This document shows, piece by piece, positions 6,553 to 36,432 of a stretch of 64,000 nucleotides of DNA. The notes under the pieces were generated by a model. It saw nothing but the letters and a program-made list of their open reading frames with translations. It was not told the origin of the DNA and ran no database searches. Numbering within the stretch: the first letter of the stretch is position 1; the number at the start of each line of letters is the position of its first letter. The translations under genes were made by a program, and so were the position numbers. Source of the DNA: an uncultured Acidobacteriota bacterium. GTDB taxonomy: Bacteria > Actinomycetota > Acidimicrobiia > Spongiisociales > ZC4RG35. The DNA lies in NCBI GenBank assembly GCA_963828465.1, contig CAWHEU010000022.1:480001-544000 (forward strand), in the 5' to 3' direction.

Positions 6553-8166
6553 ATGCCGAGGTCCACGCCTTGGTGGCGTAGCGCCGTCGTGTACCAGGTG
6601 TATCTGCGCTCCTTCGCCGATGGGAATGGCGACGGGACCGGCGACATTGCCGGCCTCCGGTCGCGTCTTCCCTACATCCGGTCGCTGGGTGTCGACGCCA
6701 TTTGGATAAACCCCTGGTACGTGTCGCCGTTGAACGACGGTGGATATGACGTCGCCGACTATCGCAGGATCGACCCCCGGTTCGGCACGCTAGAGGACGC
6801 GATCGGGCTCATTGAGGAAGCGAACGGTCTCGGGCTGCGCGGTTCTGCTGGATCTGGTGCCCAATCACACATCCTCCGAACACGCTGGTTCCAGGAGGCT
6901 ATTGCGGCCGCGCCGGGGAGTCAGGCTCGCGCCCGCTATCACTTCCGACCTGGCCGTGGCCCGGACGGTGCGCGAGCCGCCGACCGATTGGAGCAGCGAC
7001 TTCGGGGGGTCGAACCTGGAGCCGGGTCGCCGACGGTGAGTGGTATCTCCATCTGTTCGACTCCAGCCAGCCCGACCTCAATTGGGCCAACCCCGAAGTC
7101 AGGGCCGAGTTCGTCGACATCATCAGGTTCTGGCTGGATCGCGGGGCAAGTGGGTTCCGGGTCGACGTGGCCAATGGCCTGGAGAAGGCCCCGACCTACC
7201 CCGATTTCGGTGCCGTCGAGCAAGCCGAAGGGGATCCCCGGTGGGGACCTCCACCCGTACTCCGATCGTGATCCCCTCCACGAGATCGTTCGGGAATGGA
7301 GGAGTGTCGTCGACGAGTATCCCGATGCGATCCTCGTCGCCGAGGCCTGGGTCGAGAATTGGGACAGGCTGGCTCGCTATCTCCGGCCCGATGAGTACCA
7401 CCAGGCGTTCAATTTCGAGTTCATGGAGACACCGTGGGAGGAGGAGGCGATGAGGTCGGCGATCTCCATCGCAGTTCCCACCTCTGCTGCGGTGGGGGCA
7501 GTCCCGACATGGGTGCTCTCCAACCACGACATCGTGCGACAGGTCACCCGGTATGGGCTGCCTCAGACCATGGATGCCAGGGACTGGCTGCTCGATGGCG
7601 ACCGGGAGTTGTTCGATGCCGGGCTGGGCCTACGCCGGGCGAGGGCGGCGGCGCTCCTGATGCTGGGGTTGCCCGGCTCGGCATACATGTACCAGGGTGA
7701 GGAATTGGGGCTTCCCGAAGTGCACGACCTCCCCTTGGAGGTCCTGGACGATCCGACGTACACCCGCTCGGAGCAAACCATGAAAGGCCGTGATGGTTGC
7801 CGGGTCCCAATTCCGTGGACGGCCGAGGGCGCCTCCTTCGGTTTCGGGTCGGACGGGTCGTGGCTGCCCCAGCCGGCGGATTGGGGCGGGCTTTCGGTGG
7901 AATCTCAGGAGGGAGTGCCCGATTCCATGCTCGAGCTCTACCGGGATGCAATTCGGATGCGGGACCATCACCTGGCCGGATCCGAGTCCTTCGAGTGGGT
8001 CGGGGCCGGCGTCGGATGTCTTGCCTTTCAGCGGGAATCGGTCTTGGTGGTCGTCAACTTCGGGCCGAAGGCGGCCGTCATGCCCGAGGGAGAGATCCTG
8101 CTCGCGAGCTCGAGGCTCGTGGAGGACCATCTACCCCCGGACACGACAGTTTGGGTAGGCGTCTGA
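6553..8166 (+). CDS. GH13 alpha-glucosidase/oligo-1,6-glucosidase (several compensating indels at ~6840-7230)
   Basis: WWRSAVVYQVYLRSFADGNGDG, DGGYDVADY, YQGEELG; the motifs DLVPNHTS, WYLHLFDSSQPDLNW and GFRVDVA lie in shifted frames. Confidence 0.85.
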   Translation: MPRSTPWWRSAVVYQVYLRSFADGNGDGTGDIAGLRSRLPYIRSLGVDAIWINPWYVSPLNDGGYDVADYRRIDPRFGTLEDAIGLIEEANGLGLRGSAGSGAQSHILRTRWFQEAIAAAPGSQARARYHFRPGRGPDGARAADRLEQRLRGVEPGAGSPTVSGISICSTPASPTSIGPTPKSGPSSSTSSGSGWIAGQVGSGSTWPMAWRRPRPTPISVPSSKPKGIPGGDLHPYSDRDPLHEIVREWRSVVDEYPDAILVAEAWVENWDRLARYLRPDEYHQAFNFEFMETPWEEEAMRSAISIAVPTSAAVGAVPTWVLSNHDIVRQVTRYGLPQTMDARDWLLDGDRELFDAGLGLRRARAAALLMLGLPGSAYMYQGEELGLPEVHDLPLEVLDDPTYTRSEQTMKGRDGCRVPIPWTAEGASFGFGSDGSWLPQPADWGGLSVESQEGVPDSMLELYRDAIRMRDHHLAGSESFEWVGAGVGCLAFQRESVLVVVNFGPKAAVMPEGEILLASSRLVEDHLPPDTTVWVGV

Positions 8167-10422: not shown

Positions 10423-10647
10423 TCAGGTCCTCAATGTCGGTGATAGCCGCCCGAAGCCGTTAACCTGACGTAGCCGCACCGACCGGGAGGCCAGCGCTCA
10501 GACGCTCCACGGTGATCAACGGCAGTACTTCTCATCCGGTCAGACCGCCTCTTCTGCCGATCTCGCGCCAACCCGGTCCCGGGTTCGCATCGAGGGAGAT
10601 CGCACCAACTGACCACAGCCCCGGGACACGGGGCGGAGAGAATCCAA

Positions 10648-31776: not shown

Positions 31777-32154
31777 GTGCTGGCCGCGTTGAACATCGTG
31801 GCGATCGGTCTCGGCCTCGGAGCCGGGAGCCTCGCCGCCACCATTCTCGCTCTGACACTGGGCGGGCTACTGACGGTCGCCGGTGTGGAGGGAGGGGCCG
31901 ACATCGGCCTTGTCGTAGGAGTCGTGCTCGGATTGGCCGTGGCGGGCTGGGTCTCGGGTCAGATGGCCCGGCACTCCGAACGATTCCATGGCGCGGTGAC
32001 AGGATTGCTCCTGGCAGGGCTCATCGTCGTTGTGGCCAGGCTGGGAGGCAGCCCCGCGCCGACCGTGTCGGTGTTGTGGCTGGCACTGGTCGCTGCGGTC
32101 ATCGCCGGTTTCACCGGCTGGCTGGCCGGTCGACGAAAGCGATCCGGCCCGTAG
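31777..32154 (+). CDS. Four-TM hypothetical membrane protein
   Basis: Hydrophobic ORF with host-like codon usage. Confidence 0.65.
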   Translation: MLAALNIVAIGLGLGAGSLAATILALTLGGLLTVAGVEGGADIGLVVGVVLGLAVAGWVSGQMARHSERFHGAVTGLLLAGLIVVVARLGGSPAPTVSVLWLALVAAVIAGFTGWLAGRRKRSGP

Positions 32155-32160
32155 AATGAT

Positions 32161-32509
32161 GTAGTGAGCCCGCTGGGCGACCGCGGTCGAGAGATCGAGG
32201 AAAGTCCGGACTCCACAGGGCGTGGTGCTGGGTAACACCCAGGCGGGGTGACCCGACGGAAAGTGCAGCAGAGAGCAGACCGCCGATGGCCCGAGAGGGC
32301 ACAGGCAAGGGTGAAACGGTGAGGTAAGAGCTCACCAGCGTCGCAGGCGACTGCGACGGCTCGGCAAACCCCACCAGGAGCAAGGCCAAGCAGGGACGTC
32401 GGCGGCCCGTCGATCAAGTCCTGGGTAGGCCGCATGAGCGCATCGGCAACGGTGCGCCCAGATGGATGGTCGTCCTCGACAGAATCCGGCTTACAGGCGG
32501 ACTCATTAC
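32161..32509 (+). ncRNA. rnpB: RNase P RNA (bacterial type A)
   Basis: GAGGAAAGTCCGGACTC, GGAAAGTGCAGCAGAGAG, GGGTGAAACGGTGAGGTAAGAGC, GGCAAACCCCACCAGGAGCAAGGC, ACAGAATCCGGCTTAC; 5'/3' P1 pairing. Confidence 0.97.
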
Positions 32510-32547
32510 GCCAAACCCCCTCTAACCAGGGGGTTTGGCCTTTTCTA
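32478..32547 (+). repeat. att-like direct repeat, copy 1 (rnpB 3' end plus terminator hairpin)
   Basis: GACAGAATCCGGCTTACAGGCGGACTCA-tta-CGCCAAACCCCCTCTAACCAGGGGGTTTGGCCTTTTCTA; 67/70 identical to 35648-35717. Confidence 0.93.
32510..32545 (+). terminator. rnpB intrinsic terminator (duplicated at 35680-35715)
   Basis: GCCAAACCCCCT-CTAACC-AGGGGGTTTGGC-CTTTTC. Confidence 0.8.
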
Positions 32548-32720
32548 GACGTTCTCCGAAGCCGCCATTGCACGAGGATTCAACAAGAGCGCCGGTCCAA
32601 GCTGAGAATCGACTGCTTCGGTGGTCCGCTGGTCATCGTCAGGCCAGAGGTGCGAGTACGTGTCGAGCGTCTCCTGCGCGGTGGCATGGCCCAACCGTCG
32701 CTGCACGACGGTCACTGAAC
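32545..32720 (-). pseudogene. C-terminal remnant of a tyrosine recombinase/integrase
   Basis: SVTVVQRRLGHATAQETLDTYSHLWPDDDQRTTEAVD (LGH box II plus catalytic Tyr); N-terminal part absent; stop codon lies in the repeat end. Confidence 0.85.
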
Positions 32721-32788
32721 AAGGGTGGGGCAAGCCCCGGTGACTGTAAGAGGACCTCACTTCTGTCACTGCCAGTCCATACGTTCCG

Positions 32789-32899
32789 ATGATGACCGAT
32801 TGTCCGAACTGCGACCACCCGGTGATCTATCACAACGAGCATGGATGTTTTGCCGCACCGGATTGTGACTGCACCGAACAGTCCGACCGCGCAAATTGA
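32789..32899 (+). CDS. 36-aa Cys/His-rich putative metal-binding peptide
   Basis: MMTDCPNCDHPVIYHNEHGCFAAPDCDCTEQSDRAN; below the ORF-track cutoff. Confidence 0.5.
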   Translation: MMTDCPNCDHPVIYHNEHGCFAAPDCDCTEQSDRAN

Positions 32900-33063
32900 G
32901 ATGGTGCGGGCGGCGGCCTGACCGACGCGAGCAAGGGAAGGTTCGCGAAAAGTCGATGGACCCCAAACGACGCCATGAGCGATTGCATGGGTGAGGACTC
33001 CCTGGGCGTTCAGGTCCTCGAGGAAGGTCCCGGTCTCACCAACTGGCCGAGGGCGCTTCCGGG

Positions 33064-33110
33064 ACGACGAGACCCCCTGGGTTTGATGTGGGCCAGGGGG
33101 TCTGTCGTTT
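33064..33110. repeat. Hairpin H1 (related to H2)
   Basis: ACGAC-G-AGACCCCCTGG...CCAGGGGGTCT-GTCGT-TT. Confidence 0.75.
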
Positions 33111-33223
33111 ACCCGCTTCGCTCCGAACGACTGTACCCGGCCACGCCGGGCCGATTGAGTGGGCAGCAATAAGTGTTTGGTGCGGGGGGCGCCTTGTGCG
33201 TCCGCTACGAACCCGCACAAATC

Positions 33224-33282
33224 GACAACCCCCCAAAGCTCGTCGAATCACGTCAGAAACGGCCAGCCATTGGGGGGTTCTC
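33224..33282 (+). repeat. Internal repeat R1 (59-bp imperfect palindrome)
   Basis: GACAACCCCCCAAAGCTCGTCGAATCACGTCAGAAACGGCCAGCCATTGGGGGGTTCTC. Confidence 0.85.
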
Positions 33283-33308
33283 TCTTGCGTGATCCCTAAT
33301 CTCCGCTG

Positions 33309-33836
33309 GTGGATCACTTCTTTGGAGAAGACCTCCTCTTTGAAGTGCCCGTTTATCGGATCTCCTACGACGAGTTTCACAAGGAGTTAAAAGACACCAT
33401 TCTGGAGACCGCAAGGAACATGGAAGGCTCAGACTCATGGGGTCAGCTTCCTCACGCGGAGATCCGCGAGGAAGCTGAGAGATGGGCGCTGCGAAGGTAT
33501 GGTCGCCCGTACTGGTACAACGAGATGATCGGTGTCATCCGCATATACCAAGACGGCGGATCGATCAAGGGTCAATTCTGGGGTCAGCCTCAGAAGTCAT
33601 TTCGTCGGAACTTCCGCCATTACAACTACCGGGACCGGGGTCGTGTCATCGAAATCCATGAACCGCCAGGTGACCTGACCTCGATGGATGTGTATGAGGA
33701 GCTGAGGGATGACCTTCGTGGCCTCACTCGAAAGGGTGGAACACTCGAGCGCAGACACGTCGATCTGAGCACGTTTGAGCGGCTTGGGCCCTACATCGAT
33801 TGGTTGAAGGTGTTGGGCTGGCGACAGGGCACCTAG
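33309..33836 (+). CDS. Orphan cytoplasmic protein (island cargo)
   Basis: 175-aa ORF starting 26 nt after R1; codon usage unlike the host. Confidence 0.75.
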   Translation: MDHFFGEDLLFEVPVYRISYDEFHKELKDTILETARNMEGSDSWGQLPHAEIREEAERWALRRYGRPYWYNEMIGVIRIYQDGGSIKGQFWGQPQKSFRRNFRHYNYRDRGRVIEIHEPPGDLTSMDVYEELRDDLRGLTRKGGTLERRHVDLSTFERLGPYIDWLKVLGWRQGT

Positions 33837-34081
33837 GTCCGGGCCCGCAGCACCGTAATGAAGAGGCCTACCGGGGGCCCGTGATGTTGGACGATTGGCG
33901 ATGCGTGCAGTGGTTGTCACGATGTCGAGGCCCCAACAAACCAGTTACGAAGACGCGTCGATCCTCACGGGTTAGGCACGACCAAAGTTTCGCGCTTTCG
34001 TTTTCGCGCCGTGGAAATTGGGAAAGTGAGTGCCCGAATAGGAGTGCAGGGCGTCCAAGTCCGGCGAGCTCCGTTCCACAC

Positions 34082-34132
34082 ACGACGAATCCCCCTGGAT
34101 TTGGGGGAGGCTCCAGGGGGATTCTGTCGTTT
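34082..34132. repeat. Hairpin H2 (related to H1)
   Basis: ACGAC-GAATCCCCCTGGA...TCCAGGGGGATTC-T-GTCGT-TT. Confidence 0.75.
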
Positions 34133-34199
34133 CCCTCCGTTGAGATTGCACCGAGGAGGACCGAATGGCTGGATATCAGGACGGAGAGCTGGCGGCAAC

Positions 34200-34706
34200 G
34201 TGATCGTCCTCATCCGCCTCTGGGCTTTTCTCCGCTACGTCTTGGCGTTGGCCGGGTTTGTGTGCCTCCTCCTCACGGTGAGCACTGTCACCGGGTGGTT
34301 CACCGTGTCCGCCGAGGGCGCGCAGCTCGAGTGGTATTGGCTGCTCGCCGCAGCGTTCATGCTCGGCTTCCTCAGCACCGTCGGTGACACGCCATTCCCA
34401 GGTGTCTCCCGCGATGGACCTCGCCAGGTGGCTCCGGATCGGCTGGCTCCCAGTCTCGGTCATCCCATTCCGGAAGTTATCCGGGCGATGCTTGTCGCAG
34501 GAGTTTGGGGAGGTCTCACCTACCTGCTTGGCCTCCATCCGATCGTGATTTTTGCTGTAGCGGCCCTCGTCGGGATCGGCTTATCACTCCGCCGACAGAG
34601 GAGAGGGCGGCACGGTGTAGCAGCTAGAGACAGGCTGAGGAGATCCCAAATTCAGGACCGCTCTGAAACAGGGCCGAAGCCAATGATTGGGAGCTGGTGG
34701 CCATGA
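34200..34706 (+). CDS. Orphan four-TM membrane protein (island cargo)
   Basis: Four hydrophobic segments; GTG overlaps the TGA of a 12-codon ORF (34165-34203, GGAGG RBS), so either translational coupling or an indel. Confidence 0.6.
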   Translation: MIVLIRLWAFLRYVLALAGFVCLLLTVSTVTGWFTVSAEGAQLEWYWLLAAAFMLGFLSTVGDTPFPGVSRDGPRQVAPDRLAPSLGHPIPEVIRAMLVAGVWGGLTYLLGLHPIVIFAVAALVGIGLSLRRQRRGRHGVAARDRLRRSQIQDRSETGPKPMIGSWWP

Positions 34707-34759
34707 GGCAATCCCCGTCGGGGGGTTCTCTATTCGTGACATGTGGAATCGAAAAAAGA

Positions 34760-34803
34760 CTCGTCGCATCACGTCAGAAACGGCCAGCCATTGGGGGGTT
34801 CTC
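34760..34803 (+). repeat. Internal repeat R2
   Basis: 43/44 identical to 33239-33282; a short partial copy (AATCCCC-GTC-GGGGGGTTCTC) lies at 34710-34730. Confidence 0.88.
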
Positions 34804-34842
34804 AGCCTTCGCGGTATCTGTCGCACGGAATAACTTGATCGC

Positions 34843-35335
34843 ATGAACGAATGGCTGACGGCCCTAGCCATCCTCGCTCCCCTGCTTGGAGTCTGGATTG
34901 GCGGCGTGCTTGAACGTCGCTCCCGATCGGAAGAACGAGAGCGATTAGAGCGGTGGGAACTCGTTAAAGACTCTTCGCGCATCCTGGGACGAGTGGGCCT
35001 CCTGCTGCGAACGAGCGACCCAAAGACCTATCACCTCTTCGTCCTGCCAGGGAGTGACTCTGCAACGAAGATCACGGAGAAGAGCGACGAAGCCGGCGCG
35101 CTGGCTCCGATGATGTCGGAGCTCGCGGTCCGATGGCCAGCTGCTGCAGACGATCTTCTCATCCTCGAGAAGGGAACTCGGGATGCTTGCAATCAACCTC
35201 GGCCTGGTGGTTCTCACCTCAGACGATCCTGAGAGCGACCAACTGGACCCGGCGATTCGTTCGCACGGAAAGGCGACAGCGGCTCTGGATCGACTCACGA
35301 AACGTCTGCACAGTCGCGAGCCAGCAATCAACTAA
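34843..35335 (+). CDS. Orphan protein with N-terminal TM helix (island cargo); indel near 35173
   Basis: MNEWLTALAILAPLLGVWIGG..., continuing in the shifted frame ELGMLAINLGLVVL...HSREPAIN* to TAA 35335. Confidence 0.65.
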
Positions 35336-35470
35336 GGCCAGCATTGCATTCTTTGAGAGTCCGATGCCGGCGAAGTTTTTTCGCCACCCTCTCCGGCCTT
35401 CCCGAACTCGACTCTCCAGGTCCTAGTCTTTCGTTGACCACATCAACCGGCTGCGGCCCCTGTCCGGTGT

Positions 35471-35500
35471 TCTGGAAGCGGCCAGCCCATTGGGGTTCTC
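35471..35500 (+). repeat. Internal repeat R3 (degenerate)
   Basis: TCTGGAAGCGGCCAGCCCATTGGGGTTCTC vs R1/R2 TCAGAAACGGCCAGCCATTGGGGGGTTCTC. Confidence 0.7.
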
Positions 35501-35514
35501 TGTCCGACGCTCCC

Positions 35515-35634
35515 ATTCAACAGATATTCAACAAGAGGCCGTTGAATCAGGTAGAAACGTGTAGAAGCAGGTAGAACCGTCGGGATGGTGTTTCCCCAGG
35601 TCACCGCCGGAAAACGGCACGTCTTCCCAGGTCA
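35515..35634. promoter_or_regulatory. Candidate integrase arm-type / accessory-factor binding sites
   Basis: ATTCAACA at 35515 and 35526, inverted GTTGAAT at 35541, GTAGAA x3 at 10-bp spacing (35551/35561/35571), CCCAGGTCA x2 (35595, 35626); ATTCAACAAGAG also at 32578. Confidence 0.6.
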
Positions 35635-35647
35635 GAAAGGTGCCGGT

Positions 35648-35717
35648 GACAGAATCCGGCTTACAGGCGGACTCACCTCGCCAAACCCCCTCTAACCAGG
35701 GGGTTTGGCCTTTTCTA
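35648..35717 (+). repeat. att-like direct repeat, copy 2
   Basis: Duplicate of the rnpB 3' end plus terminator; differs only at cct vs tta. Confidence 0.93.
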
Positions 35718-35924
35718 AGCCTTACGCGGTCCCCGTGAACCGGAGTGCGGGCTACTGGTCGGCCTGGTATGTCTGCCGCGTTGGATGTTTTCGGGTGGCA
35801 CTGGGGCGGCATATGTTCCGCACGATTCGGACATAGCGCCAACGTGCATCCATGGCGATTTGGCGTTCGCTCTGATAATCCACTCGCCGCAATGCCGACA
35901 CAGGGCGTCGGGTTTGTTCGACAT
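35715..35924 (-). CDS. Small phage-like CxxC...WxH...C protein
   Basis: MSNKPDALCRHCGEWIIRANAKSPWMHVGAMSESCG; stop lies in the repeat end. Confidence 0.45.
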   Translation of the reverse strand: MSNKPDALCRHCGEWIIRANAKSPWMHVGAMSESCGTYAAPVPPENIQRGRHTRPTSSPHSGSRGPRKA

Positions 35925-36033
35925 CGGTTCCGTTATCGGTATCGAGCGGGAATTCCTGTACCGCGGCGGCCCGGCGTGCGGATCGGGCGACGAATCCCCC
36001 GCTGATATCGACCGTCAAGGGTTCGGTTCGCCT

Positions 36034-36432
36034 CTACGACGAAATCGCGGCGACGGCGCTGACCTCGATCAGCGCACCGGGCACTCCTAGCGCGGCCACC
36101 CGAGCGCCTACAACCGGCGGGGTCGCTCCCGCCAACTCGGCGGCTGCGACCGGATAGGCCGCATCGAGGTCGACGCCGTCGACGAACAGAACCGTCATCA
36201 TCACCAGGTCCTGGACGCTTGCGCCGGACGCGGCCAGCGCGATGTGCAGGTTCTTCATCACCTGTTGGGTCTGGGCGGCGACGTCGTCGCCACCGACGAG
36301 GGCCCCATCGCCGTCGACGGCGTTCTGGCCACCGATGTATACGGTCGTAGCGCCCGGCGGCACGACCGCGACGTGCGTGAAAGCTGGGGATTGCACAAGT
36401 CCTTCTGGCCGAAGCAGTGACGTCTGCGCCAT
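36034..36432 (-). CDS. RidA/YjgF-family protein
   Basis: FTHVAVV, VYIGGQ, QTQQVMKNL, LIEVSAVA; GAGGAG RBS. Confidence 0.87.
   Translation of the reverse strand: MAQTSLLRPEGLVQSPAFTHVAVVPPGATTVYIGGQNAVDGDGALVGGDDVAAQTQQVMKNLHIALAASGASVQDLVMMTVLFVDGVDLDAAYPVAAAELAGATPPVVGARVAALGVPGALIEVSAVAAISS

Follow-up and report, generated by a model that had tools for sequence, protein, structure and literature searches.

Background

The attC sites of integrons are delimited by R boxes that read RYYYAAC ... GTTRRRY, and the pdif sites of Acinetobacter plasmids are 28-bp Xer sites in alternating orientation. Structured RNAs head operons of phages and satellites, among them the put RNAs of HK022 and the c4 and CI immunity RNAs of P1, P7 and P4. 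Here we compare with these systems a short hairpin element, called R, and its partner hairpin H1, which we analysed in a stretch of 64,000 nucleotides (the window; contig CAWHEU010000022.1 of assembly GCA_963828465.1, positions 480,001 to 544,000) from an uncultured bacterium of the Acidimicrobiia that is labelled as Acidobacteriota. The H1-R module is a hallmark of small tyrosine-integrase islands beside tRNA, transfer-messenger RNA (tmRNA) and rnpB (RNase P RNA) genes in one genus of soil Acidimicrobiia, and to our knowledge it is not known from described islands. A preliminary description of positions 33,224 to 35,500, made from the letters alone, had presented the locus as a cassette-array-like succession of orphan open reading frames (ORFs) separated by a recurring palindromic site, possibly a non-canonical gene-capture system with the recombinase acting in trans. 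It overlooked the context, since direct repeats, a match to Rfam family RF00010 and an empty-site contig place the whole of the described stretch in an island in rnpB.

R resembles attC sites and clusters of attC sites lacking integron integrases (CALIN) in being imperfectly palindromic over about 60 nt, in folding into a hairpin whose outer arms carry AAC and GTT at their inner ends, in standing in co-oriented copies between small orphan ORFs that start 20-40 nt after the site, in marking the point where homology between modules breaks and in having a promoter-like box at the head of the array. It differs from them in that no IntI was found in 31 genomes of the genus, that its boxes depart from the consensus, that it has a conserved apical sequence, a partner hairpin and crossover points that are not fixed, and that R arrays lie inside islands which are themselves integrated in tRNA or rnpB genes. 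With tyrosine-integrase islands at the 3' ends of tRNA and tmRNA genes, the island of the window shares a direct repeat of the 3' end of the target gene, an integrase at attL, an empty site and decay of the integrase, but its target is rnpB and its family also carries the H1-R module. Like the put, c4 and CI RNAs, the module has two hairpins just past a mobile-element promoter, its loops are conserved while its stems covary, and one element can hold it more than once; unlike them, it has no Rfam match (E up to 5) and no complementary target sites, and it is only presumed to be transcribed. Repetitive extragenic palindromes (REP), bacterial interspersed mosaic elements (BIME) and miniature inverted-repeat transposable elements (MITE) are likewise short palindromic units with sharp ends, in several copies of which some are decayed, but R is low in copy number, confined to islands and unlinked to any RAYT or transposase gene, and no target duplication was seen. 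In pdif modules, too, single genes lie between short sites and move between replicons without a linked dedicated recombinase, whereas R is a 60-nt hairpin in direct orientation that lacks the layout of an Xer site.

The combination of a promoter and two hairpins is undescribed, and no match to it was found in Rfam, Pfam, NCBIfam or PHROG; an Rfam search over H1 and R in the window and 14 related loci returned no family, whether at the gathering score or with E relaxed to 5. Rfam includes no family for attC. In the portions available, the literature on rnpB as an island integration site consisted of cyanophage work and that on Acidimicrobiia with integrons of resistome surveys, neither with anything on the R element. 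Passages of the two IntegronFinder papers (PMC9024848, PMC4889954) describe Actinobacteria as lacking complete integrons; the preliminary description held that native integrons are not typical of actinobacteria.

Results

Structure of the H1-R module

Four copies of R stand in the window, and repeat comparison found each of them where the preliminary description had put it. They are listed here with the hairpin H1 that precedes the first of them.

33180-33218, forward strand: H1, the opening hairpin of the module, in its long form; 12 other units have a homologous H1.
33224-33282, forward strand: R1, complete hairpin copy of R (covariance model 70.2 bits, E 6.6e-20).
34712-34734, forward strand: mini copy, a short hairpin ending GGGGGGTTCTC, 3-5 nt past the stop codon of ORF B (see below), scored as terminator-like.
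34757-34803, forward strand: R2, copy of R without the left arm (covariance model 39 bits).
35471-35500, forward strand: R3, the last ~26 nt of R only, missed by the covariance model.

R1 and R2 agree at 43 of 44 letters (34760-34803; repeat family D2), R3 matches R at 17 of 21 letters (81%; 35475-35495; family D3) and the mini copy at 17 of 20 (34715-34734; family D4). The right 27 nt of R occur twice in the window against 0.00 times expected from 100 shuffles, and the 11-mer GGGGGGTTCTC three times against 0.15. A loop variant, GTCAG, is common to R1 and R2 and absent from the other R copies compared, and in the genome of the window (G000) the exact R motif is confined to the rnpB island. 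R1 folds into a hairpin with a DNA z-score of -4.4, none of 200 shuffles being equally good, and H1 folds jointly with it (107 nt, z -3.6). A terminator scan called the mini copy; R1 and R2 were not called. The site had been described as a palindrome, which is true of the whole of R1 and no longer of R2 and R3. The conserved unit was drawn correctly as far as the copies go, though not at its upstream limit, since H1 belongs to it as well, and ORFs do start close behind R1 and R2, at measured distances of 27 and 40 nt (given as 26 and 39 in the preliminary description).

The module covers about 125 nt and consists of a -10-like TANNNT box, H1 and R. R itself is a hairpin of 55-66 nt. Its outer stem measures 10-16 bp and its inner stem is shorter; at the apex lies a conserved motif, GTCGAATCAC, which in most copies is followed by TGCA and which is kept across subtypes while the stems differ. 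The stem subtypes retain their pairing: GAGAAC/GTTCTC, ACTGAC/GTCAGT, AAGCGAA/TTTCGCTT and a longer GCGGGAAC type. With a covariance model built from 13 copies, 85 matches were aligned, in which 91.0% of the cells pair (85.1% in shuffles) and 132 cells carry changes on both sides (59.9 in shuffles); neither value was reached in any of 500 shuffles, and in slid controls pairing was 62.7% or less. When restricted to 60 unique forward rows, the alignment has 1000 paired cells out of 1081, and compensatory changes occur in 11 of the 20 pairs. Covarying stems, which the preliminary description had named as a support for its idea, are borne out by these both-side changes. The first 13 copies, all of type A, held no compensatory change, and covariation emerged only with the wider family; RNAalifold returned no consensus for MAFFT alignment A4 and none for the forward rows of A5. 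Over the model pairs, G.U cells number 119 and A.C cells 19, and therefore the plus strand is taken as the strand that folds. R does not have the make-up of an intrinsic terminator, whose hairpin is short and GC-rich, has a loop of 3-8 nt and is followed by a U tract; the apical part of R is 14 nt or longer.

H1 stands before 55 of 68 distinct R copies. In its long form the loop is TTCG in six units, TCCG in one and GTAA in one, and the inner stem has compensatory changes. Another form, H1', is recognised by the motif GACTCGTYG ... CAC, which occurs once in H1' and once in R. TANNNT boxes, located 5-9 nt ahead of H1, pile up at two distances from R: they start at -66 to -50 in 18 of the 68 copies and at -49 to -33 in 19, compared with 2 copies in each of two control windows. 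In type B units (for example L053 2700-2817 and L015 6377-6450), TCGATTCGACG is present in the 3' strand of H1' and complements the apical motif in the R next to it, and in this subtype alone H1' and R could pair with each other.

Distribution of the R family

More than 60 copies of R were found; they come from soil metagenomes and from a single uncultured genus of the Acidimicrobiia. When 61 relatives were compared with the island by BLAST, 12 genomes matched, all of the same genus and often with several matches in a row. The covariance model detected R in 15 of 31 genomes of the genus at E<=0.01 (11 at E<1e-6), with a low copy number of 1-8 matches per genome, both strands counted, and in 4 of 151 sampled genomes of the order, the only one outside the genus being a weak match in the unpublished genome G039. 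Pattern scans returned 10 stretches of genome contigs and 33 of metagenome contigs, many of the latter with 2-3 copies. By title, 8 of the 10 genome stretches are metagenome-assembled genomes of Acidimicrobiia or Acidimicrobiaceae and 2 are Acidobacteriota; the latter labels may be wrong.

Nearly all of the copies retrieved are situated near genes for tRNA (among them Thr, Pro, Val, two kinds of Leu, Ala, Gln/Glu), tmRNA or rnpB, and many of these have integrase genes or fragments as well; at locus L075 three copies lie between two copies of tRNA-Leu. The covariance model and contig comparison thus turned up what the preliminary description had looked for, related copies that flank variable ORFs in other genomes. 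Its expected link to one recombinase family failed: the integrase genes and fragments beside R copies are of several kinds and mostly broken.

Several loci deserve separate mention. The genome of the window holds a second, diverged unit (G000:C18:102036-102163, minus strand; L017 8036-8163) with a TATGTT box, an H1 with a TCCG loop and an R with an 11-nt insertion, about 240 nt from tRNA-Val(gac). A hot spot after the tRNA Gly-Cys-Val(gac) cluster (L015, L017, L055, L077) spans 6 to 13 kb, differs in cargo by genome and contains several R subtypes, together with up to four copies or fragments of ORF69, a small gene discussed below; a broken ORF69 with one TAG lies at C18:97947-98138 in the genome of the window. 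The L013 island (G003:C12) is flanked by a 40-nt repeat that corresponds to the 5' half of tRNA-Thr instead of the 3' half (7210-7285, 10570-10609), and its Xer-like integrase is transcribed away from the 5' end of the tRNA gene; therefore this island would supply the 5' half of the working tRNA gene and its upstream region. The same layout occurs at a tRNA-Met gene in G004:C2 (L078). Among the cargo adjoining R are a protein with a TIR domain, membrane proteins with LapA domains and a pair of STAS and anti-sigma kinase genes (L064 653-1432; L075 3096-3446; L045 4224-5122; L062 1368-2165), most other cargo ORFs being without a family. Near the island locus of G003:C3 there are two matches to the c-di-GMP-II riboswitch (GAG type; cyclic di-GMP), at L019 14150-14235 and 15315-15400 (66.5 and 59.9 bits), 1.2 kb apart.

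Homology between islands breaks at R

The alignment in register of 467 inter-locus pairs of R copies indicates that R marks the joints between swappable gene modules, because homology between islands breaks at R and units of one module plus R come and go. In 13 of the 467 pairs homology was restricted to the upstream side, and all 13 alignments end within -2 to +5 nt of the 3' end of R; in 9 pairs it was restricted to the downstream side, and 7 of these begin at R positions 1-9. This break of homology at the site, in 13 of 13 and 7 of 9 such pairs, bears out that side of the preliminary description. One downstream module stands behind R in four contexts (L050, L060, L075, L058) with three kinds of upstream sequence. 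The tRNA-Val locus L055 carries H1, R and a module with ORF153 that are 95% identical to those of the tRNA-Thr locus L013, and an extra unit of a small membrane ORF plus R, present in L014 and, between these parts, in L013, is missing from L055, so that variable gene content, in units of one module and one site, was found as well. In L014 (7397-7846; G019:C1) a fluoride riboswitch (44.1 bits) and crcB lie between ORF69 and H1-R, a cargo module that brings its own regulator.

Diagnostic letters place the crossover in mid-loop in one pair of copies and in the right arm in another. Since R is conserved everywhere, a crossover is possible anywhere within it, and homologous exchange would explain the pattern no less well than a fixed cut.

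The island of the window and its decay

The island and its boundaries comprise the following features.

32165-32509, forward strand: rnpB, RNase P RNA gene of class A and integration target (Rfam RF00010, 296.9 bits, E 4e-96).
32478-32547, forward strand: attL, left 70-nt direct repeat, made up of the rnpB 3' end and the terminator (family D1).
32548-32715, reverse strand: C-terminal remnant of a tyrosine integrase, its last ~55 codons, with the stop codon abutting attL.
32789-32899, forward strand: Cys-rich mini ORF of 36 aa, from the ORF list, no family match.
32902-33196, forward strand: insertion of 257 nt (32921-33177) with 19-nt direct repeats of the H1 5' half on either side.
33309-33836, forward strand: ORF A, 175 aa, no known family, present only in the window among all loci compared.
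34042-34706, forward strand: ORF B module, a terminator-like hairpin (34088-34132) and a membrane-protein ORF of ~168 aa (34200-34706).
34843-35335, forward strand: ORF C, 129 aa, no family match, with a probable continuation in another frame (35183-35335).
35503-35537, no strand assigned: stretch weakly like the integrase 3' end beside attL (family D6, 74% over 35 nt), in two copies, which may be chance.
35648-35717, forward strand: attR, right 70-nt repeat with the native rnpB 3' end, 96% identical to attL.

The gene rnpB is preceded by a promoter-like site (32130-32157) and followed by a terminator hairpin (32510-32539). The 70-nt repeat covers its last 32 nt (32478-32509) and the terminator, and the 3.1 kb between the two direct repeats (32548-35647) are therefore a decayed island integrated in the 3' end of rnpB. 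Four soil DNA runs, which gave short contigs only, were compared with the window, and record 8 of run X1 joins 22 letters of rnpB (those at 32456-32477) directly to 35648-36092, which is an empty site; this is a single contig of depth 5.6 that may stem from another strain. Neither a joint at R nor a circle appeared among the contigs of these runs, which are too short for their absence to carry weight. The repeats attL and attR differ at three letters (32506-32508), of which the attL letters are the island version because the empty-site contig carries the attR version. Direct repeats of an RNA gene, an integrase beside the attachment site and an empty site in related DNA, by which tyrosine-integrase islands are known, were thus all found. 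The integrase remnant resembles the C-terminal end of the integrase fragment of L014 (BLASTP E 2e-6), which has a Pfam Phage_integrase match, and is 53% identical to the C-terminal end of a full-length integrase in G021:C170; the Pfam search with the remnant itself gave no match, even at E up to 5.

The 36-aa mini ORF stands before H1-R in several islands (tblastn matches in L007/L032, L013, L017 and L004/L033). In L013 it leads straight into H1, whereas in the window the 257-nt insertion separates H1 and R1 from the -10-like box. The 19-nt repeats of the insertion (32902-32920 and 33178-33196; family D18) are 84% identical; it contains a 65-aa ORF and a terminator-like hairpin (33071-33110), and the same segment is also present in G021 and G030. 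The homologue of the box in the window, at 32893-32898, reads CAAATT instead of TAAATT. Because R1 is cut off from its box, the box homologue is altered and R2 and R3 are stumps, the H1-R module of the window is probably dead, R2 and R3 being truncated relics. The truncated integrase, ORF C, which is likely frameshifted, and the insertion upstream of H1 mark the island as decayed. ORF A and ORF B occupy one interval with no R site between them. Homologues of the ORF B module occur in G008, G024, G020 and G006 (78-81% in DNA, 59-73% by tblastn) on contigs without an R match.

Terminator-like hairpins at 33071-33110, 34088-34132, 32510-32547 and 35680-35717 share stems of CCCCCTGG ... CCAGGGGG, and two of the terminator-like hairpins of the window have a TGTCGTTT tail. 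A similar hairpin is found in L068 and a 29-nt match on contig C29, and hairpins of this kind may be a second recurrent type of the genus. Just outside attR begins a 69-aa ORF on the minus strand (35715-35924) with two CxxC-like pairs and no Pfam match.

Discussion

A proposed role of R in a transcribed structured RNA

Tentatively, we favour the reading that R is part of a transcribed structured RNA that heads the cargo of the islands, and that recombination between its copies shuffles this cargo. The module would be transcribed from its own promoter, on the strand of the ORFs in the window, and its RNA would be structured, serving either as a 5' leader to the cargo genes or as a small RNA some 105-115 nt long. 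The pile-up of TANNNT boxes before H1, the tetraloop-type loops of H1 with their compensatory changes and the bias towards G.U pairs are the grounds for placing a transcribed RNA on that strand. In a typical island the module stands between the backbone (the integrase and, in many islands, also ORF69) and the cargo, and recurs between cargo modules. Since H1-R is the sole conserved stretch between otherwise unrelated cargo, modules may be exchanged at R; recombination between R copies would then add, remove and swap modules and give the locus the look of a cassette array.

A number of points weigh against this reading. Covariation was measured in an alignment fitted to the model, with 25 reverse-strand rows among its 85, and many of the copies are close kin. 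The minimum free energy of R alone has no strand preference, the plus strand being the stabler in 27 and the minus strand in 41 of the 68 copies. H1 is missing from 13 of the 68 copies and about half of them have no TANNNT box. The next gene after R is convergent in L062 and at L075 2995, which fits a leader badly, and the U-rich tail is absent from the subtype B copies and from L028, which fits a terminated small RNA badly. Complements of the apical motif are not enriched near the copies (22 matches, control mean 13, maximum 37). What the sequences themselves show is the island, the R family, the hairpins with their covariation, the bias between strands, the TANNNT pile-up and the breaks at R; transcription, a function as RNA and the way in which the copies recombine are what we infer from them.

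R as a possible integron-like recombination site

A second reading, possible but rather unlikely in our judgement, makes R an integron-like, structure-specific site, at which a folded single strand would be cut by a tyrosine recombinase encoded on the island or elsewhere, perhaps with the help of ORF69, and circular units of a module plus R would be captured or excised downstream of the module promoter. It would account for the break of homology between islands at R, for the unit of a small membrane ORF plus R in L013 and L014 that L055 lacks, for the one downstream module behind R in four contexts and for the arrays, in which two or three copies stand in the same orientation. It is further supported by the hairpin, 55-66 nt long, whose outer arms have AAC and GTT at their inner ends and of which one strand is favoured, and by the promoter-like box that heads the array, as one does in integrons.

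The array is nevertheless not an integron, because no IntI reaches the cut-off, the only intact recombinase beside an array is Xer-like and the boxes are off the attC consensus. With the integron-integrase model TIGR02249 none of the 31 genomes of the genus passes the cut-off of 265 bits, the best score being about 74, and likewise none of 14 control genomes; three of the 31 (G018, G027, G028) are unpublished, and leaving these out gives 0 of 28. With the same model the intact neighbour, in G003, reaches 41 bits, and as an Xer-like recombinase it reaches 135-136 bits, and the other integrases near R are of several kinds and mostly broken. Type A boxes read GAGAAC ... GTTCTC and type B boxes GGGAAC ... 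GTTCTCC, with AAC and GTT cores in most copies, and their outer letters have the purine/pyrimidine pattern opposite to that of RYYYAAC/GTTRRRY, so that the departure from the consensus noted in the preliminary description holds for both types. Integron sites are recognised by structure, as hairpins of 57-141 nt with a conserved fold and little conserved sequence; R covaries, yet 10-14 apical nt are kept across its subtypes, and H1 is conserved too, unlike attC. Crossovers fall at differing points within R, as in homologous recombination, and the truncated R2, R3 and L014 8251 are not products of a clean site-specific exchange. Arrays of co-oriented ORFs hold in the window and in L013, not in L062 or at L075 2995.

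A bolder form of the same idea, which we regard as unlikely, is that of an integron-like capture platform of Acidimicrobiia without an integron integrase. R would be used by the ordinary tyrosine recombinases of the islands, with ORF69 as helper, and circles of a module plus R would be captured behind the module promoter, in islands that hop between tRNA, tmRNA and rnpB genes.

R and H1 as possible binding sites of ORF69

It is improbable, to our mind, that R and H1 are double-stranded DNA binding sites of ORF69, acting as an Xis-like or repressor-like winged-helix protein; in that case they would control divergent promoters of ORF69-int and the cargo, or shape an excision complex. ORF69 was detected by tblastn in about 25 loci that hold R, and in about 10 of the 68 copies its start lies 52-65 nt upstream of R, with the gene pointing away. 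In L062 it stands just upstream of a frameshifted integrase on the same strand, resembling an xis-int pair. Among the genomes of the genus, 8 have both R and ORF69, 3 have R alone, 6 ORF69 alone and 14 neither. The protein has no match in Pfam, NCBIfam or PHROGs, and a protein atlas gave no named family. Its predicted structure (predicted local distance difference test score 78.7) has the layout of three helices and a hairpin, and the best structural matches of this model are winged-helix regulators (Z 5.2-6.2); Foldseek found nothing in the PDB at E<=0.001, and the fold matches, being below Z 8, may reflect a common arrangement only, so that the winged-helix-like nature of ORF69 is only suggestive. 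The motif GACTCGTYG ... CAC in both H1' and R would suit a protein-binding site. On the other hand, the stems covary instead of keeping their sequence, the bias of G.U over A.C argues for a folded single strand, long-form H1 units have neither this motif nor a neighbouring ORF69, and the island of the window has no ORF69 at all.

Less likely readings: R as a selfish repeat or a decayed fragment

Very improbable is a selfish palindromic repeat of the REP or MITE type, one that spreads by itself and has no role for the islands. Its sharp ends, the inverted terminal arms GAGAAC ... GTTCTC and the several copies per locus, decayed ones included, would be in keeping with such a repeat. R does not belong to this class by copy number, spread, linkage or target duplication: there are 1-8 matches per genome, the copies lie mostly in islands near tRNA, tmRNA or rnpB genes instead of being scattered through intergenic DNA, the R copies inspected revealed no target-site duplication, and Pfam showed no transposase or RAYT-like gene near the copies, except one IS481-type gene in L029.

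That R is a decayed fragment, either of an integrase 3' end, the minus strand being readable as peptide, or of an attachment site from a tRNA 3' end, is scarcely credible: R3 is indeed followed by the stretch 74% like the integrase 3' end at attL, with its minus strand open in that frame, and type A copies do share TCGAATC and GCCAGCC, in this order, with the tRNA-Pro 3' end of L016, but loop insertions of 1, 2 and 5 nt would break any reading frame, selection acts on pairing, an integrase-like neighbour occurs at R3 only while other integrases end differently and not next to R, and GCCAGCC is lost in other subtypes that keep the hairpin. No full-length integrase gene running 3' through R was found among the loci compared. 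A coding origin from the integrase 3' end was dropped on account of the sole neighbour at R3 and the frame-breaking loop insertions and deletions, and an origin from tRNA-Pro because only TCGAATC survives in other subtypes. We also dropped R as an attachment-site arm at the outer end of islands, the last copy being 148 nt from attR in the window and 377 nt in L013.

Conclusions

The module comes from barely studied, uncultured soil Actinomycetota, and the window clearly exemplifies the insertion of an island into the RNase P RNA gene, the empty site being present in a metagenome contig. If R is a transcribed RNA, it would represent a new class of structured RNA associated with mobile islands and with a small protein of winged-helix-like type. 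Should it instead be a recombination site, it would be a second, integron-independent way to build cassette arrays, in a phylum in which complete integrons have not been found, and would bear on why integrons are missing there. Either way, the module is a practical marker for small decayed islands in metagenome-assembled genomes and for their cargo, which includes TIR-domain, LapA-like, anti-sigma and crcB genes.

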